Shown: positions 6,741 through 28,276 of the stretch, one piece after another
Layout: each line of letters starts with the position of its first letter
Numbering within the stretch: position 1 is the stretch's first letter
NCBI GenBank assembly: GCA_902825795.1
Contig: CADECG010000002.1
Location: 15,541-79,540 of the forward strand
Direction: 5' to 3'
DNA from: an uncultured Bacteroidota bacterium
Lineage (GTDB): Bacteria; Bacteroidota; Bacteroidia; Flavobacteriales_F; PHOS-HE28
Length of the DNA stretch: 64,000 nucleotides
Position numbers and translations under genes: made by a program
The notes under the pieces: model-generated
Database searches by the model: none
What the model was told of the DNA's origin: nothing
The model's input: the letters and a program-made list of their open reading frames with translations, nothing else

Positions 6741-7018
6741 GGCAACGGTGGCAGTGGCCTCCATCCGTAGAAAGGTCGAACGTGTGCTCATGCTGTGCCG
6801 TGTCGAATGTCGGGAAGATCCGGTCGTGTAGTTCATCATCGGCCACATGGTGCTTTGCGCATCGGCGATGGCGCACAACAGCATGTCAATAGTCCTCACC
6901 TCCAGCGCTGGCACAGCCCTATACTCACAATACTTTCGGACCTTGCACCATAGCGCTGATCCCGACCGGACGCGATGATGCGGCACAGTTTTCGGGATAT
7001 AGACCTCATGCATGATAC

Positions 7019-19535: not shown

Positions 19536-19729
19536 AGATGCGCTGTATTGGTTCCGAGATGGTGAACCGGAATGAGAGGTTGATACTACGCAACTTCAGC
19601 GTCTGCGGTACGAAAACGGTACGACCCAACAACATTCAGAATACCTGCGCCGTGTGGTTTTCCTATCGCTGGTTCGCGGCTCCTGGCCTACTCGACTTAG
19701 ATTTCGGGACACTCCATACTCCAGAGATC

Positions 19730-21274
19730 ATGAAGAGTAAGTTCATGGGAAAACCAATGACCCGCATGGCCTTGGGTTTGGTGGCTGCTTTTCTGGGATG
19801 CGCACTTTGCGCCCAACCAAGGAACGCCAACGTGATTTTCGGGGATAACCTTTGGCTCAACTTCAACGGTGGTGCTCTTGCCGTGAGCGGCTCTCCCTAT
19901 TCACCAACGAACCGCACGGCATGCATTAGCAATACAAATGGTGAGTTGCTATTCCTCGCGGATGAGACCGGGATACGCGACACCACGTTCGCGTTGATGG
20001 CGGGTGGTGATGCGACCACGCTCGGATGGCCCAACACGCTGGCTGCGGTATTGATACTGCCTAAGCCGGGCTCTTCAACGAATTACATCGTTTTCGTGAA
20101 CACACCCGAAACCACCAAGCAGGCCGGATGGGTTGAGGTTGATATGAGTTTGAGCGGCGGGCTTGGGGGCGTGGTGAGCACCGGCACCACATGGTACATG
20201 AGCAACTGCACCGCCAAGTTGGCCGCGACCACGCATTCGAACGGAACGGACTACTGGGTGATGCAGCACGCTGATGGCACTGATGAATTCCATGCATATC
20301 GACTAGCGGTCAACGGACTCGGCCCCGCTCCTGTGATCAGCGCTGCGGGAAGTAGTTTAACCCCAACGCCATTTCCTGAACGTTTGAGCAGTGACTTTTG
20401 GTCCCCGATGAAATTCTCGCCGATGGGTGACCGGCTAGCGATGGGCTTGCAACTTGATGGCGATACGCTGGGTGCCAGTGTGCTGAACTTCGATCAAACG
20501 ACGGGCATCGTCTCGCATGTTGCGGACATACCCTGCACAATTCATTACTACGCCAGCGGACAGTTGACCGAAGCCTATTACAGCGCCGACCTCGTGAGCG
20601 GTATTGATTTCTCGAGTACTGGGGATTTTCTGCACGTAACTAGACTGAAGACCTTATTGGACGGGAGCGGGGGATCTCTCTCCACCCAGATCACCGTTGC
20701 CTTTGAAAATGTAGATAGCCTGGCCGCCTCGACTTTACCATCGCTGCACGTTGAAATGGGCTTAGGATCCGGATGGTCCCCTGATACTGTGGGTTCTTCA
20801 CTGATGCTTGGACCTGACGGTGTTTTGTATGTCCGTTCACTTTCCACAGACTTTGGCTACCTGTTCTTTTTAGCTACAGAGCCCCTTGTTCTCAGCGACC
20901 CCAATGTCATCGATCAGCAGATCGCATGGACGGGAGTTTTCCAGATCCCTGCGGGTTTCCCTCTATTCTGCAAACGATACCACGATAGCGAACCTGCATG
21001 GCTCGGCATACAGGGGAACATGGCCAATGAAGCTTCGTTGCGTGTGTGGCCCAACCCCGTGTATGAAGCCGCCACAATGGATCTGCCGAACGCTAGAAGC
21101 GCAGTTCGACTTGTCTGGACGGATGCTCTTGGGTGCACAGCGCGTGATGAAGAGATGATGGGCGTAGGAAGATCCGTGCGGTTAGAGCGGGGTAGCCTCC
21201 GGGCCGGTCTCTATATCGTGAAGGTTTGGGACGGCAATACACCGTTGGGCAATGCGCGTGTGTTGTTGGAATAG
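19730..21274 (+). CDS. hypothetical secreted protein with T9SS (type A) C-terminal sorting domain
   Basis: Signal peptide 'MTRMALGLVAAFLGCALCAQ'. C-terminus 'LRAGLYIVKVWDGNTPLGNARVLLE' is CTD-like. Divergent from the Gly-rich T9SS gene. Confidence 0.65.
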   Translation: MKSKFMGKPMTRMALGLVAAFLGCALCAQPRNANVIFGDNLWLNFNGGALAVSGSPYSPTNRTACISNTNGELLFLADETGIRDTTFALMAGGDATTLGWPNTLAAVLILPKPGSSTNYIVFVNTPETTKQAGWVEVDMSLSGGLGGVVSTGTTWYMSNCTAKLAATTHSNGTDYWVMQHADGTDEFHAYRLAVNGLGPAPVISAAGSSLTPTPFPERLSSDFWSPMKFSPMGDRLAMGLQLDGDTLGASVLNFDQTTGIVSHVADIPCTIHYYASGQLTEAYYSADLVSGIDFSSTGDFLHVTRLKTLLDGSGGSLSTQITVAFENVDSLAASTLPSLHVEMGLGSGWSPDTVGSSLMLGPDGVLYVRSLSTDFGYLFFLATEPLVLSDPNVIDQQIAWTGVFQIPAGFPLFCKRYHDSEPAWLGIQGNMANEASLRVWPNPVYEAATMDLPNARSAVRLVWTDALGCTARDEEMMGVGRSVRLERGSLRAGLYIVKVWDGNTPLGNARVLLE

Positions 21275-21291: not shown

Positions 21292-21331
21292 CAACAAGAA
21301 CGCCCATGCCAGTGCATGGGCGTTCTTGTTG
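21292..21331. terminator. bidirectional rho-independent terminator hairpin (18-bp perfect stem, 4-nt loop) between convergent genes
   Basis: 'caacaagaacgcccatgc'-cagt-'gcatgggcgttcttgttg' read directly from the sequence. Confidence 0.75.
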
Positions 21332-21351: not shown

Positions 21352-22425
21352 CTATGGGCCAATTCTGCCCAACGCCTGTTCCGCATAAAACCCGCCACCA
21401 GCAGCAATGGTCATGAACACCGGACGAGCTGCGAGGGTTCCCTGCGAGCGCTCGGTGCTGAGCGCTTGATACCACAGCGCTTCTTGGTCGAAGGTGCCAA
21501 CCGGGTGGATGGCTGCCCGAGCGAAGTAGCGTTCGGCTTTCTTGTACAGCCCAAGATTGTAGCAGGAGAGACCGGCATAGAACAGCGCGTTGATGTCATC
21601 GGGATATTGGGCGAGCACGGTGCGCAGTTCAGTAAGTGCGCGCTTGTGATCATTGCGTGCGAACGCGGCAAGTGCCACATCGAAGTGATCGAGGTATTGT
21701 ACCGGTCTGGTTTCAGGTTCCGCAGCGGCTTGGTCTTCAGGGGAAGCGAAGCGGGCACTCACGCCCAAGTCCTTGATGGGCGGCGGGTTGTCGCCATACA
21801 GTTCATTCGGGTGTACAAGCTTGAGGTTGTGCAGGAAAACCAATTGGCGGGAGTCGAGGACAACGCTCGAACTGCGCACCACCACGGTATCAACCGGCTT
21901 TGGTAATTGAACACGCACCGGTAGTTCGGCAAGTTGAATGGTGTCACGTTGCACCACTACTTCATCGGCTTTCAGGGGTGGTTTGCTCAGCGTTGGTTCA
22001 TGACCGATCTGTTGGCTCGGAAGGATCTGTACGGCGGCGATGATCTCGTTCTCGGTGGGCAATTGGATCGCGTTCGGTGCGCTGTCGACCAGGGGCGCAG
22101 TGCCATCGACATCCGTTGCACCCTCGATGTTCCCGGTTGTCAGCAACGCTTCATCGTCATGACTGGGGAGCAGCCAGGGCAATACGCTGATGAGGACAAC
22201 AACACCCACGACCAACGCTGGTCGCAACCAATTCGCTCCACGCGCACTTCCCATCGGCTTCTCCAATTCCGGCAATGGAGCCTTGGAAGCTGCTGACCCT
22301 TCAACCGCCTCACGACAGAGTTCACACCGTTCCAAGTGCAACTCCACCGCATGTGCCTCGGCACCCAGCACATGGCCATGTGCATAGCGCTCCAATAGCG
22401 TTCGGGACAGGTGTTCCATGATCAT
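21352..22425 (-). CDS. anti-sigma factor (zf-HC2 type) with TM helix and C-terminal TPR-like domain
   Basis: 'H..ELHLERCELCREAVE' putative zinc-finger motif. TM 'ALVVGVVVLISVLPWLL'. TPR-like 'ALFYAGLSCYNLGLYKKAERYFARA'. Start overlaps the sigma stop (ATGA). Confidence 0.7.
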   Translation of the reverse strand: MIMEHLSRTLLERYAHGHVLGAEAHAVELHLERCELCREAVEGSAASKAPLPELEKPMGSARGANWLRPALVVGVVVLISVLPWLLPSHDDEALLTTGNIEGATDVDGTAPLVDSAPNAIQLPTENEIIAAVQILPSQQIGHEPTLSKPPLKADEVVVQRDTIQLAELPVRVQLPKPVDTVVVRSSSVVLDSRQLVFLHNLKLVHPNELYGDNPPPIKDLGVSARFASPEDQAAAEPETRPVQYLDHFDVALAAFARNDHKRALTELRTVLAQYPDDINALFYAGLSCYNLGLYKKAERYFARAAIHPVGTFDQEALWYQALSTERSQGTLAARPVFMTIAAGGGFYAEQALGRIGP

Positions 22426-23012
22426 GGTGCGTTATGCGCTGTTCGTCCTGACGTGTTGCTTGTGCCGCGCTCCAGGATGATACGCAGGTTGCGCCGACCG
22501 TTCTGGAGGTTACTGCGCACGGCGTCGAAAGCGATGTTCAAGCGTTCGCCGACTTCGGCATAACTGAGCCGGTCGAGGTAGAACAGTTTGATGCAATCGC
22601 GCTGGTGTTCTGTCAGTTCATCGATGGCGTGTTCCATTCGGCGCAATAGGTCTTCGTTCTCCAAGTGCGCGGCCAGCAGATCATCGGCTTCATCGTGCTG
22701 GGTCCCGTTCAGTTCCGTCAACGGTTTTGCGCCGCGTAATTGCATCAGACAATGGTTACGCATCACAGTGTGCAACCAGGCCCCGGTGTTGCGCACCTCG
22801 TGGCGCTTGATCAGCGATGGCAGCTCGGCGAACACGTTCATCACGGCATCCTTCGCGGTCTCCGCGTTCTTGAGATACTTCATGCCCACGGCAAAAAGCA
22901 GGTGGGCGTACCTGTCCCAGAGTACGCCCAGCGCATCGGAGCGGCCGGCCTTGATCGCCAAGACCAATTCCTCATCGCTACTTGCTTGCTGCTGTTTCCG
23001 CCGTAGGAACAT
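22422..23012 (-). CDS. RNA polymerase ECF-type sigma-70 factor
   Basis: Region 2 ('YAHLLFAVGMKYL', 'AKDAVMNVF') and region 4 ('LSYAEVGERLNIAFDAVRSNLQNGRRNL'). Confidence 0.8.
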   Translation of the reverse strand: MFLRRKQQQASSDEELVLAIKAGRSDALGVLWDRYAHLLFAVGMKYLKNAETAKDAVMNVFAELPSLIKRHEVRNTGAWLHTVMRNHCLMQLRGAKPLTELNGTQHDEADDLLAAHLENEDLLRRMEHAIDELTEHQRDCIKLFYLDRLSYAEVGERLNIAFDAVRSNLQNGRRNLRIILERGTSNTSGRTAHNAP

Positions 23013-23906
23013 TCACTGTTTTGGTTGCTCCAAAGGTGGCTGCTCCAGCCCTTGTTCCGGCTTCTTCTCCGGGTCGCCGTCTTTGGTCTCCTCCTTCACT
23101 TCCTCTGGCTTCTTCTCTTCCAGCTGTTGCTGTTCCAACGCTTCCTGCGCCTGGCGGGCATCGTACTCGCGGCGCAACTGCATGGCGCGCTCCTGTGCCC
23201 ACAATTCTTGGTACGTCTTGGTCTCGATCACCACCACACCACCGGTAACGTCGCCGTACTTGGCCGGAAGCCCACCGGTATACACCGTAACGCTGCTGAT
23301 GGCGCTGCTCGGGACCCGTGGCAGTCGTCCGGCAATGCGCACGCCATCCACAAAGCTCGCCATGTTCTCGGTGCGGCTGCCCTTGAAGTGCAGGCCTTCG
23401 TTATCGCGCGAAGCAGTGATGCCGGTGAAGTTGGTCGTCATGAATTTCACCGGGTTCTTGACGTTCGGGTCGTTCTTCATTTCGCTTGCGAGCAACGTCT
23501 GCCTTCCCGGGTCCGCTTCATCGATCAATGGCCGCCGGTTGACATAATCAGCCTTCACCTTCTTCTTGAACACAACAAGCTCCTTCGCTGCCAACACCAG
23601 CGTGAAGTTGAGTTTCGTGTGCTGATCGGAAATGACGCTGACGGGCTCCGGCGAGTTCGATGTGAACGTATTCGCAGATGCGGTAACACTGTATGTCCCC
23701 GTCGGCAAGGGCTTCAACACATATCGACCTTGCTCATCAGTGGTGGTGCTGATGGTGCCGTTGGGAAGTGCGATCGATACGGTCGCGAACGGTATCGGCT
23801 TGCTTTCCTCATCGAGCACTTTGCCGCGTATTTCGCCCATGCTCTGGGCGTTGGTAACCAATGCGCTAATCGCAAAGGCTAGAGGAAGGAGAATTCCGTG
23901 TCCCAT
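23013..23906 (-). CDS. barrel-less TonB-dependent-receptor N-terminus (carboxypeptidase-regulatory-like domain + plug domain) with an acidic low-complexity C-terminal tail
   Basis: Signal peptide. 'IRGKVLDEESKPIPFATVSIALPNGTISTTTDEQGRYVLKPLPTGTYSVTAS' is CarbD_reg-like. 'FKGSRTENMASFVDGVRIAG...ISSVTVYTGGLPAKYGDVTGGVVVIETK' is plug-like. It then ends in ~70 aa of E/K/Q/P-rich sequence. The stop abuts the sigma start codon. Confidence 0.6.
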   Translation of the reverse strand: MGHGILLPLAFAISALVTNAQSMGEIRGKVLDEESKPIPFATVSIALPNGTISTTTDEQGRYVLKPLPTGTYSVTASANTFTSNSPEPVSVISDQHTKLNFTLVLAAKELVVFKKKVKADYVNRRPLIDEADPGRQTLLASEMKNDPNVKNPVKFMTTNFTGITASRDNEGLHFKGSRTENMASFVDGVRIAGRLPRVPSSAISSVTVYTGGLPAKYGDVTGGVVVIETKTYQELWAQERAMQLRREYDARQAQEALEQQQLEEKKPEEVKEETKDGDPEKKPEQGLEQPPLEQPKQ

Positions 23907-23966
23907 GATCGACGTGTTTGATCATAGGATGCGGGGAGCCCGGGAAATGCACAAGGAGCAAAGCCC

Positions 23967-24578: not shown

Positions 24579-24678
24579 GACGGGGCGAAAGTAACCCAGC
24601 GTATAGCGCAGCCTTTCAAGCTCGTTAACGTTTCAGGTGAAGGCCACGTCAACGCACCGGCCTACTTTTGAGCCGTCC

Positions 24679-25077
24679 ATGAACCAGCTGCGCACAAATC
24701 GCTTCATCGTCCACTTCGCGGCGATGCTCCTATTGGTGGCTGCTTTGGCCCCTGCGTTGTGCCGCACGACCTGTCTACACAGTGGGCGCAGCGTTTTGGA
24801 TCTTGGCCATGCAAAGGGTTGTTGCGACAATGACGCGCCAAGCGACAAGCCTGAATTCCAAGGCACCTGTTGTGTGCATACCGAGGCCAGCGCCCAAGTG
24901 AACGACCATACTGTTGGCACACCCACCAAGCTGCTGGTATCGCTCCCGGTGGTATCCATTCTGGTTCCCGAACCGGCAATTCTTCGGGGCGCTCCGATCG
25001 CTTTGCTGCGCACTGACCGCGCACCACCGGTTAAGGCTCCTGAACGGTTGAGCCTTAACCGCTCGCTTCTTTTATAG
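24679..25077 (+). CDS. hypothetical small Cys-rich membrane/secreted protein
   Basis: N-terminal hydrophobic segment 'FIVHFAAMLLLVAALAPALC'. Clustered Cys 'CRTTC...GCCDND...GTCCVH'. Immediately upstream of a TonB-dependent receptor. Confidence 0.4.
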   Translation: MNQLRTNRFIVHFAAMLLLVAALAPALCRTTCLHSGRSVLDLGHAKGCCDNDAPSDKPEFQGTCCVHTEASAQVNDHTVGTPTKLLVSLPVVSILVPEPAILRGAPIALLRTDRAPPVKAPERLSLNRSLLL

Positions 25078-25157
25078 ACTTCTTCTTTCCTGCGACCAAG
25101 GTGCCCATTGGTGCGCTTGGCGATGTTGGTTATGCTCACTCAACAGGAAAAGAAGGC

Positions 25158-27374
25158 ATGCACTCAAGAAGATCGATCGCAATACTGCTCATAGCGATGG
25201 GCGGGCTCCCCGCAGTTGCGCAGGAGGTTAGTGGTACCGTGCGCGGCCGCAAAGCGGATGGATCGGTGGTGGTCCCGTTCGGCAACGTGAACTGGGCGGG
25301 AACGACCATTAGCACAACGGCTGATGATGCCGGTCGATTCTCGATCGCCGCGCCTTCATGGCCGGGCAGGCTGATCGCCAGTGCAACGGGCTACTCCAAC
25401 GATACGTTGGTATTCACTGAAGCGCCCTCGGGTGCCGTGGCGTTCGTTCTGGAGCCGGTGATCGAACTCGGCGCAGCGCGGATCATCGAGCGTGTACAAG
25501 GCACGCTGCTGGACACCCGGAGCACCGTGAACGGGGAACGCATCGGACAGAAAGAGCTCAAGCGCGCGGCGTGCTGCGACCTGAGCGAGAGCTTCGAGAC
25601 GAACGCAACGGTGGATGTGAGCTACGCGGATGCGGTGAGCGGCACCAAAGCGATCAAGATGCTCGGACTGGACGGCAAGTACGCGCTCATCAGTGTGGAG
25701 AACATCCCTTTTCTGCGCGGCCTCAGCAGCAGCTATGGGCTCACGTTATTGCCCGGTCCGTGGATCCTTGGCATAAACGTGAGCAAGGGCACAGGCCCGG
25801 TCGTGAACGGCTACAGTAGCATGACCGGCCAGATCGACCTCTCGCTGTTACAACCCAGCAGTGCGGAACCGCTATTCGTCAACCTGTATGGCAACGCACA
25901 GGGCCGTTACGAAGCCAATGTGCATTCAGCCCAACGTCTCGACACCGCGTGGCACAACCTGTTGATGGTCCATGCGAACTTCAACGAGACCGAACTGGAC
26001 AACAACAAGGATGGCTTCTTGGACAACGTGTTGAACAAGCGCATCAATATCCTCGACAGGGTGGAATACCAAGGTGACGGCAGCGATGCACACGTTGGCG
26101 TGCGGTACGTTTTCGATGAACGACGTGGCGGACAAGTCTCGCGTGATGAGGACGTGGGGCCTGCGATCCCGCGCTACCGCGTGGGTATCACGAACGAACT
26201 GATCGATGTCTTCGCCAAGGGTGGCTTCGTGTTCAAGAACAACGCAACACGGAGCATTGGCCTGATCGGCAACTACCGGCAACACACGCTTGATGCGCAA
26301 TTCGGGAACCGTGACCACACCGGCTTGGAGCACAGTGGTTCGTTCAGTGCCATTTTCCAGCAGCTGCTGCGCGATGGCAACGACCAAGTGAAAGCAGGGC
26401 TCACCTTCAACTACGCTGACTTTACGGAACAATACATCGACAGCACCTTTGGCCGTACCGAGCGCATACCGGGTGCCTTCGCCGAACACACGTTGAAGCG
26501 CGGAAGCTTCACCGCAGTGAGCGGTCTCCGGTTCGACATGAACGACCACTACGGCAATTTCCTGTCACCGCGGTTGCACTTGAAGTATGATCTGGGCCCA
26601 CTCACCGCATTGCGTGCCTCAGCTGGCAGCGGCTGGCGCAGTGCGAACCCATATGTTGAGAATGCCTCTGCTTTGGCCAGCTCGCGCACGGTGATCGTGG
26701 AAGAGGACCTTCGCGCCGAGCGCAGTTGGAACGTCGGTGTGGCCCTCACGCACAAATTCAAATGGATGCAACGCAAGTGGGCGTTCAACGTCGATGCGTA
26801 CCGCACGGAATTCACGGATCAAGCGGTGGCGGATATGGACGCCAGCGCGCATGAACTCCGGCTGTACAACCTGCGCGGAACGTCATACGCGACCACGGTA
26901 CAAACCGATCTACAGGTGGAACTTATTCGTCCATTGCAGTTGAAAGTGGCCTACCGGTGGTACGATGCACGCACCACTTACAGTGGACGACTGCTTTCGC
27001 GACCCTTCGTGCCCGAGCATCGCGCCATGGCCGATCTCGCCTTTACCAGTCCGGACGAGAAGTGGCGCTTTGACATCACACTGAACTGGTTCGGCACAAG
27101 CCGTCTGCCCGACTTGTCGGACAATACCAGCGCACACCACTTCAGCGAACACGCACCTGACTACACCTTGCTGCATGCGCAGTTGAGCCGCGTGCTCGGC
27201 GCGCTCGAACTCTACCTTGGATGCGAGAACATCACCGACTTCATGCAGCATCCGCAGATCATCGCACCCGAGCAGCCGTTCGGCCCGGACTTTGACGCCA
27301 GCATCATTTGGGGACCGACCAATGGACGCATGTTCTATGGCGGCCTACGTTACACACTGAAAAAGAAAAAGTAA
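25158..27374 (+). CDS. TonB-dependent receptor
   Basis: Signal peptide. CarbD_reg-like N-domain. Plug ('DLSESFETNATVDVSYADAVSGTKAIKMLGLDGKYALI'). ~550-aa barrel ending 'FYGGLRYTLKKKK'. Confidence 0.85.
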   Translation: MHSRRSIAILLIAMGGLPAVAQEVSGTVRGRKADGSVVVPFGNVNWAGTTISTTADDAGRFSIAAPSWPGRLIASATGYSNDTLVFTEAPSGAVAFVLEPVIELGAARIIERVQGTLLDTRSTVNGERIGQKELKRAACCDLSESFETNATVDVSYADAVSGTKAIKMLGLDGKYALISVENIPFLRGLSSSYGLTLLPGPWILGINVSKGTGPVVNGYSSMTGQIDLSLLQPSSAEPLFVNLYGNAQGRYEANVHSAQRLDTAWHNLLMVHANFNETELDNNKDGFLDNVLNKRINILDRVEYQGDGSDAHVGVRYVFDERRGGQVSRDEDVGPAIPRYRVGITNELIDVFAKGGFVFKNNATRSIGLIGNYRQHTLDAQFGNRDHTGLEHSGSFSAIFQQLLRDGNDQVKAGLTFNYADFTEQYIDSTFGRTERIPGAFAEHTLKRGSFTAVSGLRFDMNDHYGNFLSPRLHLKYDLGPLTALRASAGSGWRSANPYVENASALASSRTVIVEEDLRAERSWNVGVALTHKFKWMQRKWAFNVDAYRTEFTDQAVADMDASAHELRLYNLRGTSYATTVQTDLQVELIRPLQLKVAYRWYDARTTYSGRLLSRPFVPEHRAMADLAFTSPDEKWRFDITLNWFGTSRLPDLSDNTSAHHFSEHAPDYTLLHAQLSRVLGALELYLGCENITDFMQHPQIIAPEQPFGPDFDASIIWGPTNGRMFYGGLRYTLKKKK

Positions 27375-27410
27375 GGGCATGAAATTCCGCGCCTCAACAA
27401 CCAAAGCAAA

Positions 27411-27755
27411 ATGAAGAACATCCTCACCGCCGCACTGATCCTGATCGGGGTATCGGCTGCCGCACAAAAGAACAACGACACGCTTCTCGTGAAAAGCACC
27501 ACGATCTGCGACATGTGCGAGAAAACGATCGAAACGGAAATGATCTACGAGAAGGGCGTGCAGAAAGTGTCCGTGAACTTGGAGGACGCCACCGTTGAAG
27601 TTGTCTACGACAGTCGAAAGACGACGCCTGAAGCCATCCGCAAGGCGATCAGCAAACTTGGCTACATGGCCGATGATGTCGCTGCCGATGAAGCCGCTTG
27701 GAACAAGCTGCCGGCGTGTTGCAAGAACGAAGGTTGCGGAAAACCCAAGCAATAG
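27411..27755 (+). CDS. periplasmic heavy-metal-associated (HMA) domain protein
   Basis: Signal peptide 'MKNILTAALILIGVSAAAQ'. HMA-like 'CDMCEKTIE' metal-binding motif with ferredoxin-like fold pattern. C-terminal 'CCKNEGCG'. Confidence 0.7.
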   Translation: MKNILTAALILIGVSAAAQKNNDTLLVKSTTICDMCEKTIETEMIYEKGVQKVSVNLEDATVEVVYDSRKTTPEAIRKAISKLGYMADDVAADEAAWNKLPACCKNEGCGKPKQ

Positions 27756-27757
27756 GC

Positions 27758-28276
27758 ATGGCACTGGTACGAACGCTCAATGGCATCGCTCCCGCGTTCG
27801 GGAGCGATTGCTTTCTGGCCGAAACGGCCGTGGTGATCGGCGATGTAGTGATGGGGGATCAATGCAGTGTGTGGTACAACGCGGTGATACGCGGTGACGT
27901 GAACCGCATACGCATCGGTGACCGAACGAACATCCAGGACCTCGCCATGTTGCATTGCACTTACGAGCGGGCCGCACTTACCATCGGCAGCGATGTGAGC
28001 ATTGGGCACGGAGCCATCGTGCATGGCTGCACCATCCACGACAAGGTGCTCATTGGAATGGGTGCTATCGTCATGGATCACGCAGTGATCGGCGAAGGGA
28101 GCGTTATCGCTGCCGGGGCAGTGGTCTTGCAAGGCACCCGCATCGAACCCGGCAGTCTTGTTACAGGCGTGCCTGGCAAACGCGTGCGCGAAGTGGGCGA
28201 GGACCTCAGCAAGAACGAGATCGAACGGATCGCCGCCAACTACCTCAAATACGCGGGCTGGTATAAGAAAGGGTGA
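27758..28276 (+). CDS. gamma-carbonic-anhydrase family (left-handed beta-helix hexapeptide) protein
   Basis: Hexapeptide repeats. 'CSVWYNAVIRGDVNRIRIGDRTNIQD...LHC' with conserved His residues of the PaaY/YrdA/gamma-CA type. Confidence 0.75.
   Translation: MALVRTLNGIAPAFGSDCFLAETAVVIGDVVMGDQCSVWYNAVIRGDVNRIRIGDRTNIQDLAMLHCTYERAALTIGSDVSIGHGAIVHGCTIHDKVLIGMGAIVMDHAVIGEGSVIAAGAVVLQGTRIEPGSLVTGVPGKRVREVGEDLSKNEIERIAANYLKYAGWYKKG

Follow-up and report, generated by a model that had tools for sequence, protein, structure and literature searches.

A barrel-less SusC N-terminus at the head of a conserved three-gene ECF sigma factor operon in Flavobacteriales

The subject of this account is a group of three genes on the reverse strand of a 64,000-nucleotide stretch of contig CADECG010000002.1 (positions 15,541 to 79,540; assembly GCA_902825795.1, from an uncultured Bacteroidota bacterium), which is referred to throughout as the window. 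These genes make up a self-contained signalling operon of the extracytoplasmic function (ECF) type, bounded by a conserved ECF-type promoter and by a hairpin, and they encode in turn a barrel-less relative of the TonB-dependent receptor (TBDR) SusC, an ECF sigma factor and a single-pass anti-sigma factor. The first product, called here the plug-only protein, is the N-terminal third of SusC: it comprises the N-terminal extension (NTE), a TonB-box-like strand and the plug, and it stops where the barrel would start. The three-gene unit is conserved, under selection and autonomous. As to how it works, the explanation tentatively preferred here, which we would put at something short of an even chance, is that the plug-only protein is a periplasmic receptor-like partner of the anti-sigma factor, possibly also engaging a protein of the TonB family. 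The features on which the discussion draws are as follows.

23925..23953, reverse strand: ECF-type promoter motif, TGTGCATT-N13-GCATCCTA, found with a position weight matrix (PWM) and ending 18 nt upstream of the plug-only ATG
23013..23906, reverse strand: plug-only gene (barrel-less SusC N-terminus), 297 aa, defined by its open reading frame (ORF), Pfam, homologue clusters, an AlphaFold2 model (mean predicted local distance difference test score, pLDDT, 81) and a ratio of nonsynonymous to synonymous substitution rates (dN/dS) of 0.08
23844..23906, reverse strand: signal peptide (residues 1-21) with visible n, h and c regions and a modelled helix at 7-17, its putative cleavage site at an invariant A-Q
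23598..23837, reverse strand: NTE, a CarboxypepD_reg beta-sandwich (residues 24-103)
23568..23585, reverse strand: TonB-box-like strand KELVVF (residues 108-113) in a flexible linker, placed by alignment to the BT1763 box; pLDDT low, as expected for a linker
23217..23531, reverse strand: plug domain (residues 126-230), with the invariant YTGGLPxxYGDVTGGVxxxET
23016..23216, reverse strand: tail (residues 231-297), with a conserved TYQELW start, a long helix and a disordered E/K/Q/P stretch ending PPLEQPKQ
22422..23012, reverse strand: ECF sigma factor gene, 196 aa, regions 2 and 4 (PF04542, PF08281, PF04545; TIGR02937)
21352..22425, reverse strand: single-pass anti-sigma factor gene, 357 aa (ORF; ChrR-type anti-sigma N-terminus; AlphaFold2 model, pLDDT 77)
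22261..22425, reverse strand: cytoplasmic anti-sigma domain (residues 1-55), with H25-x3-C29-x2-C32 and three modelled helices at 8-46
22171..22227, reverse strand: transmembrane helix (residues 67-85), hydrophobic LRPALVVGVVVLISVLPWLL, from the model and the sequence
21361..21843, reverse strand: periplasmic part, a conserved beta-hairpin (residues 195-204, QLVFLHNLKLVHP) and a domain of three TPRs (residues 244-355)
21292..21331, no strand assigned: perfect 18-bp inverted repeat with a 4-nt loop, a terminator-like hairpin 20 nt after the anti-sigma stop

A preliminary description of this DNA had reported the three ORFs together with the junctions between them, and all of this holds in the window DNA: the TGA of the plug-only gene directly abuts the ATG of the sigma factor gene (...CAG TGA ATG TTC...), both genes being in one frame, and the stop codon of the latter shares four nucleotides with the anti-sigma ATG (...CACC ATGA TC...). 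Such spacing suggests that translation of the three genes may be coupled. The in-frame plug-only and sigma ORFs are parted by a single TGA (window 23013-23015, and likewise 6748-6753 of locus L003), and tblastn high-scoring segment pairs ran across this stop codon owing to the shared frame; readthrough would join an exported protein to a cytoplasmic sigma factor, and is probably meaningless.

That the genes belong together can be seen from a tblastn survey of 95 loci, extending down to 32% identity. A sigma factor gene lay directly downstream on the same strand in 68 of the 68 unique loci having at least 700 nt of room, and where at least 1900 nt were available the anti-sigma gene was also present downstream, in 50 loci out of 52; for relatives at 43-49% identity the precomputed gene calls likewise run from a plug-only gene to a sigma factor gene and then to a protein of ~360 aa. 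In about half of the loci, 0-15 nt separate the plug-only stop from the start of the sigma factor gene. It had been argued beforehand that orthologous plug-only genes next to ECF sigma factors would favour function over pseudogene, and the conservation across these 68 loci bears this out. When all ORFs flanking the 40 loci of at least 6 kb were clustered without bias, the only families conserved across all clades proved to be these three: plug-only (40 loci), sigma (38) and anti-sigma (37).

The promoter travels with the unit in much the same way. A consensus T(A/G)TG(C/G)(A/G)AT-N13-(T/C)GCATC(C/T)TA is common to 54 of 73 orthologous upstream regions, and these 54 were used to build the PWM, with 30 shuffles as background; the motif keeps a fixed distance from the plug-only start, 16-19 nt from its end to the ATG in the high-GC clade. 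The copy in the window scores 31.0 bits, as against 14.3 for the next best site in 64 kb and 14.5 for the best of the 30 shuffles, and no second site rose above the shuffle background in the window or was found within the ±5 kb flanks of the other loci. The most distant relative of the anti-sigma factor (P0311, 28% identity) is of particular help here, as it belongs to an operon made up of sigma factor, anti-sigma factor and Peptidase_S41 genes that has no plug-only gene (L096 1303-4541; also L097), and in L096 the same motif (TATGGAAT-N13-GCATCTTT) stands ~50 nt upstream of the sigma factor gene. Since the motif precedes the sigma factor gene even where there is no plug-only gene, it would appear to belong to the sigma factor, which we infer to autoregulate its own operon. 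In the plug-only clade the plug-only gene lies between promoter and sigma factor gene, and so is the first gene of that operon. In the ancestral pair a C-terminal processing protease may have carried out regulated proteolysis, as the arrangement in L096 also hints.

At the other end of the operon, the two arms of the hairpin are 100% complementary (predicted ΔG -37.3 kcal/mol, z=-6.98, with 0 of 200 shuffles folding as well). It lies between two convergent genes, namely a 578-aa ORF that ends at 21274 and the anti-sigma gene that ends at 21352, and is not followed by a T-run; its probable role is that of a bidirectional terminator.

The relationship of the plug-only protein to SusC was established by several routes. 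Pfam gives a CarboxypepD_reg match over residues 26-103 (E=1.4e-18), the family profile is colinear with residues 5-231 of the solved SusC BT1763, and distant family members match TIGR04056 at positions 2-204 of 981 with E-values down to 1.6e-18, although the scores (19.9 bits in the window protein and no more than 66.5 bits in relatives) lie far below the curated cut-off of 368, as set for the whole model. The AlphaFold model has a beta-sandwich at residues 24-100, a low-confidence linker at 105-130 and an alpha/beta domain at 135-229, followed in the C-terminal part by a single long helix (232-272) and then disorder. By the SusC colinearity, the TIGR04056 matches in relatives and the model, the plug fold is present. 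The preliminary description had called the plug complete; the Pfam Plug match is only partial (residues 160-224, profile positions 32-107 of 107) and its 23.3 bits fall just under the gathering score of 23.9; most homologues carry a precomputed PF07715 match. The absence of a barrel, also part of that description, stands: there was no PF00593 match at E<=1 in the plug-only protein, and the C-terminal part is modelled as helix and disorder, not as barrel strands. No STN domain (PF07660) was matched at E<=1 either, and the model likewise contains only NTE, linker, plug and helix.

Between NTE and plug, the segment 'kEVEVIAY' of the family profile (KELVVF in the window) aligns to DEVVVTGY of BT1763, which is that protein's TonB box and whose deletion or mutation abolished transport (PMC7782687). 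The sequence of this segment is variable, while a hydrophobic alternating pattern typical of a short strand is kept at the same position in 63 loci. At the other landmark of the N-terminal region, the end of the signal peptide, Q21 of the A-Q pair is invariant in 56 sequences. Neither a lipobox cysteine nor a C-terminal domain for the type IX secretion system (T9SS) was found in the plug-only protein, and in combination with the missing barrel this points to a Sec-exported product that would be periplasmic, and either soluble or peripherally attached.

The C-terminal tail needs to be considered separately, as the preliminary description had given it some prominence. A tail of the kind described, about 70 aa and rich in E, K, Q and P, is indeed present in the window (67 aa, 60% E/K/Q/P, no aromatic residue among the last 40, C-terminal Q), but it is not a feature of the family, in which tails are 7-25 aa long and start (S/T)Y(F/Q)(D/E)(L/M)(Y/W); long tails occur only in the window and in loci L001 and L016. 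Where present the long tail is constrained (dN/dS 0.07-0.23), and from these sequences it is to be regarded as a later, lineage-specific addition. A P-x-LEQP motif at its extreme C-terminus (23016-23045, reverse strand; P0007, P0010, L001) is kept despite differing tail lengths, the ends compared being QPPLEQPKQ, QPPLEQPEQ and APTLEQPLN, and it may be a short linear docking motif. Docking of an acidic, EEVD-like C-terminus into the TPR domain was considered as a separate idea and rejected, since the tails of the family are short and their last residue is R, K, Q or another, with no conserved acidic end.

The same end point is found throughout the family. A word-indexed search gave 246 or more clusters of homologues (90% identity), of which the best 120 are all 237-346 aa long, and a metagenome scan gave at least 541 coding stretches. 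Within 81 unique loci from independent assemblies there are 66 complete family ORFs of 233-346 aa (median 245, with one 71-aa outlier), and the family ends at the plug/barrel boundary in every member. Some public gene calls are overlong at the N-terminus (L014 5001-6041, for instance, at 346 aa, and also L003, L022 and L024); the conserved promoter lies inside the called ORF, so that the true length is ~245 aa and the longest calls represent mis-called starts. An exhaustive hidden Markov model (HMM) search of 1.84 billion representatives is dominated at the top by giant proteins with multiple CarboxypepD_reg repeats, the informative hits being those that match the full profile in a single stretch. 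Of such short single-stretch representatives (at 50% identity; 173-279 aa) there are ~68 in the top 150, 231-279 aa in length and covering essentially the whole profile save for a few N-terminally truncated fragments (173-219 aa), and that top 150 contains no full-length TBDR.

Comparison with an 88%-identical relative gives the overall dN/dS of 0.08 listed above, and for the plug domain dN=0 with dS=0.54 over 98 codons; the plug evolves more slowly than any other part of the module, the sigma factor included. The plug motifs FRGSR and YGDVTGGV..ETK, which contact the barrel in TBDRs, are invariant. The module is widespread among uncultured Flavobacteriales of wastewater, freshwater and sea (the linkage too is found in marine samples); its carriers include the metagenome-assembled genomes JADJCX01 and JADKAB01 and one cultured organism, Halocola ammonii. 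Publicly the proteins are named 'TonB-dependent receptor', 'carboxypeptidase regulatory-like domain-containing protein' or 'hypothetical'. No account of the module was found in the searchable literature, none of the curated NCBIfam models covers it, and the main text of Casas-Pastor et al. 2021 (PMC7826278), so far as that text extends, makes no mention of a plug or carboxypeptidase context.

The sigma factor is a generic ECF sigma. It scores 79.2 bits with TIGR02937 (cut-off 42.9), while no specific ECF family model reaches its cut-off: the Bacteroidetes FecI-like TIGR02985 gives 74.4 bits (cut-off 126.4) and the GFO_1088/PG0214 family 76.7 (cut-off 130). Its partner belongs to a family of 43 clusters of 343-376 aa, all of them 'hypothetical' proteins of Flavobacteriales. 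The preliminary description had classed it as a zf-HC2 anti-sigma factor, and the HxxxCxxC motif on which this turns is present in the window (22330-22353, reverse strand, residues 25-32), as it is in L002 and the distant L085; the HMM matches, however, are weak and below their cut-offs (zf-HC2, E=0.037; TIGR02451, E=7.7e-4), and most orthologues have DPLLRE instead. Since most orthologues lack the cysteines, zinc binding does not characterise the family, and any zinc or redox sensing would be patchy between lineages. No FecR-type domain (PF04773 or DUF4974) was found in the anti-sigma factor, for which Pfam gives only TPR families and the weak zf-HC2 match. In the model the TPR domain (244-355) is confident and YbgF-like, and the linker between membrane and periplasmic domains is disordered with a small conserved helix near residues 125-130. 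This helix or motif (residues ~121-142; 22036-22065, reverse strand) is predicted with pLDDT above 90, and within it E127, A131, I140 and H142 are invariant in six syntenic orthologues, with only E127 so across a 39-sequence family alignment; it could be an intramolecular or partner-binding element.

As to known systems, the closest analogue is VreA-VreI-VreR (PUMA3) of Pseudomonas aeruginosa, which has the same order of receptor-like protein, ECF sigma factor and anti-sigma factor but is built from different domains; VreA goes back to the N-terminal, periplasm-facing part of a TonB-dependent receptor, has no barrel, and is mostly soluble and probably periplasmic (PMC2729926, PMC4971064). In contrast to the plug-only protein, in which NTE, TonB-box-like strand and plug are present and STN is not, VreA consists of an STN domain and a TolA/TonB-CTD-like domain and has no plug. 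Similarly, VreR is a FecIR-type regulator, whereas the anti-sigma factor here combines a class-I-like N-terminus with a YbgF-like TPR domain, and the promoter of vreAIR depends on PhoB and not on VreI, whereas here a conserved ECF-type promoter travels with the sigma factor. The phylum also differs, VreAIR being found in Pseudomonadota. The picture given in the preliminary description lacked this precedent (PMC2729926), and with it the retained TonB-box-like strand and the conserved promoter.

With SusC/RagA proteins (TIGR04056; BT1763, PDB 5t3r/6zaz) the likeness extends over the ~205-230 N-terminal residues, which are colinear from signal peptide through NTE and the TonB-box segment (here a TonB-box-like strand) to plug, with both folds confirmed; what the module does not share with them is the 22-strand barrel, the SusD partner, a score anywhere near the cut-off (20-66 bits against 368) or a polysaccharide utilisation locus as its setting, the gene being linked instead to a sigma/anti-sigma pair. 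The FecA-FecR-FecI systems, including the SusC-like STN transducers of Bacteroides, have in common with it a component derived from an outer-membrane receptor, a single-pass anti-sigma factor, an ECF sigma factor and a TonB box, here a TonB-box-like strand. That the module nevertheless does not fit this paradigm was rightly pointed out at the start: it has no barrel, no STN and no FecR/DUF4974 domain, its sigma factor is below the FecI-like cut-off, and its receptor-like gene lies inside the sigma operon. In the RpoE-RseA-RseB and CnrH-CnrY-CnrX systems a co-transcribed soluble periplasmic protein modulates the anti-sigma factor from the periplasmic side. Their folds are unrelated to those here and their gene order is different. 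By analogy, the module would resemble VreA-VreI-VreR or CnrX-CnrY-CnrH in function, with the difference that the sensor would here be built from a transporter plug.

[quoted passage not shown] Genes expressed at a fixed ratio from one promoter are typical of the subunits of one complex, and the obligate linkage combined with this arrangement is taken as support for a shared complex. Three further points count for a sensor: the periplasmic part of the anti-sigma factor contains a large and conserved module for protein binding, a TonB-box-like strand persists at the position homologous to the validated box of BT1763, and with VreA a receptor-like protein without a barrel is already known from a gene set of identical order. 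A wider claim, namely that a plug, NTE and TonB box freed from a TonB-dependent transporter (TBDT) act as a soluble periplasmic signalling module linking an ECF sigma factor, via the YbgF-like TPR anti-sigma factor, to the state of a TonB-family motor or to a periplasmic ligand, is more speculative still, and although possible we would regard it as rather less probable than the partnership itself.

It must be remembered that several observations weigh against such a partnership. Mirror-tree partial correlations between plug-only protein and anti-sigma factor are weak (0.14-0.35). The L096 pair does without a plug-only protein and has an S41 protease instead, which makes the plug-only protein accessory and inessential to the pair. 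Its promoter-proximal place in an autoregulated operon is just as fitting for an effector or output, the plug may still be housed in some barrel given how extremely its barrel-facing motifs are conserved, and the analogue VreA itself has no demonstrated signalling role (PMC2729926, PMC4971064). The slow evolution of the plug fits a role with many contacts, and does not separate the models.

Foremost among the alternatives, though on balance unlikely, is that the plug-only protein is the output of the system rather than its input, that is, the main product induced by the sigma factor, with the free NTE, TonB box and plug serving as a periplasmic TonB-box decoy; it would titrate a TonB paralogue, so damping TonB-dependent uptake or blocking the TonB-dependent entry of toxins or phages. 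As the first gene behind the sole detectable sigma-type promoter of the 64-kb window and of the ±5 kb around the other loci, its level would track sigma activity, the TonB-box-like strand and NTE are both retained (the NTE having been speculated by the authors of the BT1763 study to give specificity for TonB paralogues; PMC7782687), and the pair in L096 exists without it. However, a decoy needs the TonB box alone, yet it is the plug core that is most conserved and the TonB-box sequence least, and the tight stop-start spacing with the sigma factor gene suggests stoichiometric and not bulk production.

More doubtful is a split, two-piece TonB-dependent transporter or transducer, in which the plug would be supplied in trans to a 22-strand barrel encoded elsewhere and its occupancy reported to the anti-sigma factor. 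The protein does stop at the SusC plug/barrel junction, its barrel-contacting motifs are invariant and no part of the module evolves more slowly than the plug. There is also a laboratory precedent of a kind, Braun and colleagues being said to have found (in J Bacteriol, 2003) that FhuA cork and barrel exported separately reassemble in vivo. Clustering of the 40 loci nevertheless gave no barrel gene conserved with the module within ~5 kb in any clade or across clades, no natural plug-less TBDR partner was found in the locus flanks, and the one TBDR nearby has a plug region of its own, no sigma-type promoter and no counterpart in the distant clade, so that the role of plug donor raised in the preliminary description is weakened.

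That the gene is a degenerate remnant (a truncated TBDR pseudogene whose barrel gave way to low-complexity sequence, as had also been suggested), or that a frameshift or assembly error hides a full-length receptor, is a negligible prospect: the frequent public annotation as 'TonB-dependent receptor' and the low-complexity end of the window protein would favour it, but this reading is refuted, on the sequences compared, by purifying selection and by a common truncation point in 66 complete ORFs of independent assemblies, one 71-aa call aside, with only short members and no full-length TBDR in the exhaustive search, the tail being a later addition and the sigma factor gene starting right after the plug-only stop, so that no downstream sequence is left to encode a barrel.

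Beyond the promoter, on the side away from the operon, lies nifU and, divergent from it, a block at 24637-28276 on the forward strand that is syntenic in relatives at >=39% identity:

24637-25077, forward strand: Cys-rich 146-aa ORF, no Pfam match
25101-27374, forward strand: 757-aa TBDR with a divergent plug, no Pfam Plug match, motif AACCDLSESFETN
27411-27755, forward strand: HMA metal-binding protein
27698-28276, forward strand: hexapeptide-repeat protein

The block looks like a metal-uptake unit, judging by its predicted products, and no promoter with the ECF motif was found for it. NifU and the divergent TBDR are confined to the clade at >=39% identity, and so are the HMA and hexapeptide proteins. 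In the TBDR, residues 45-247 align by phmmer to the NTE and plug (residues 27-230) of the solved receptor 9gbc_A; Pfam Plug was not found, and hhalign matched the NTE only. It was considered as the missing barrel and rejected for the reasons given under the split transporter. Membership of nifU in the operon was likewise rejected, as the promoter separates it from the plug-only gene and the distant clade has no nifU. Beyond the hairpin are a glycine-rich protein (PF21722; 18579-19535, reverse strand) and the 578-aa protein, which has no Pfam match (19538-21274, forward strand); both have putative T9SS-like C-terminal sorting ends (...YFLRVFERGAQRTLKVLK and ...LYIVKVWDGNTPLGNARVLLE, respectively).

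TBDT plugs are thought to fold and work only inside their barrels. A plug that is kept without a barrel, and is more conserved than the sigma factor encoded beside it, implies either a barrel-independent function or natural transporters assembled in trans. Should soluble plug signalling prove true, it would be the first time that a TBDT plug is seen to work without a barrel around it. Barrel-less cell-surface signalling would then have a second, independently evolved kind, in Bacteroidota, and the role of the SusC NTE could be studied in a natural minimal system. Deletion of that NTE is dominant-negative (PMC7782687), and the paper on PDB entry 9hfj does not discuss it; a soluble NTE, TonB box and plug with a dedicated sigma/anti-sigma read-out would offer a tractable handle on its function. 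On a practical level, plug-only genes as annotated at present are miscounted as transporters, the promoter motif of the module can be used to find the regulon, and the existence of a cultured carrier, Halocola ammonii, makes experiments possible. Overall, the findings suggest that the module is a previously undescribed three-part envelope signalling switch.

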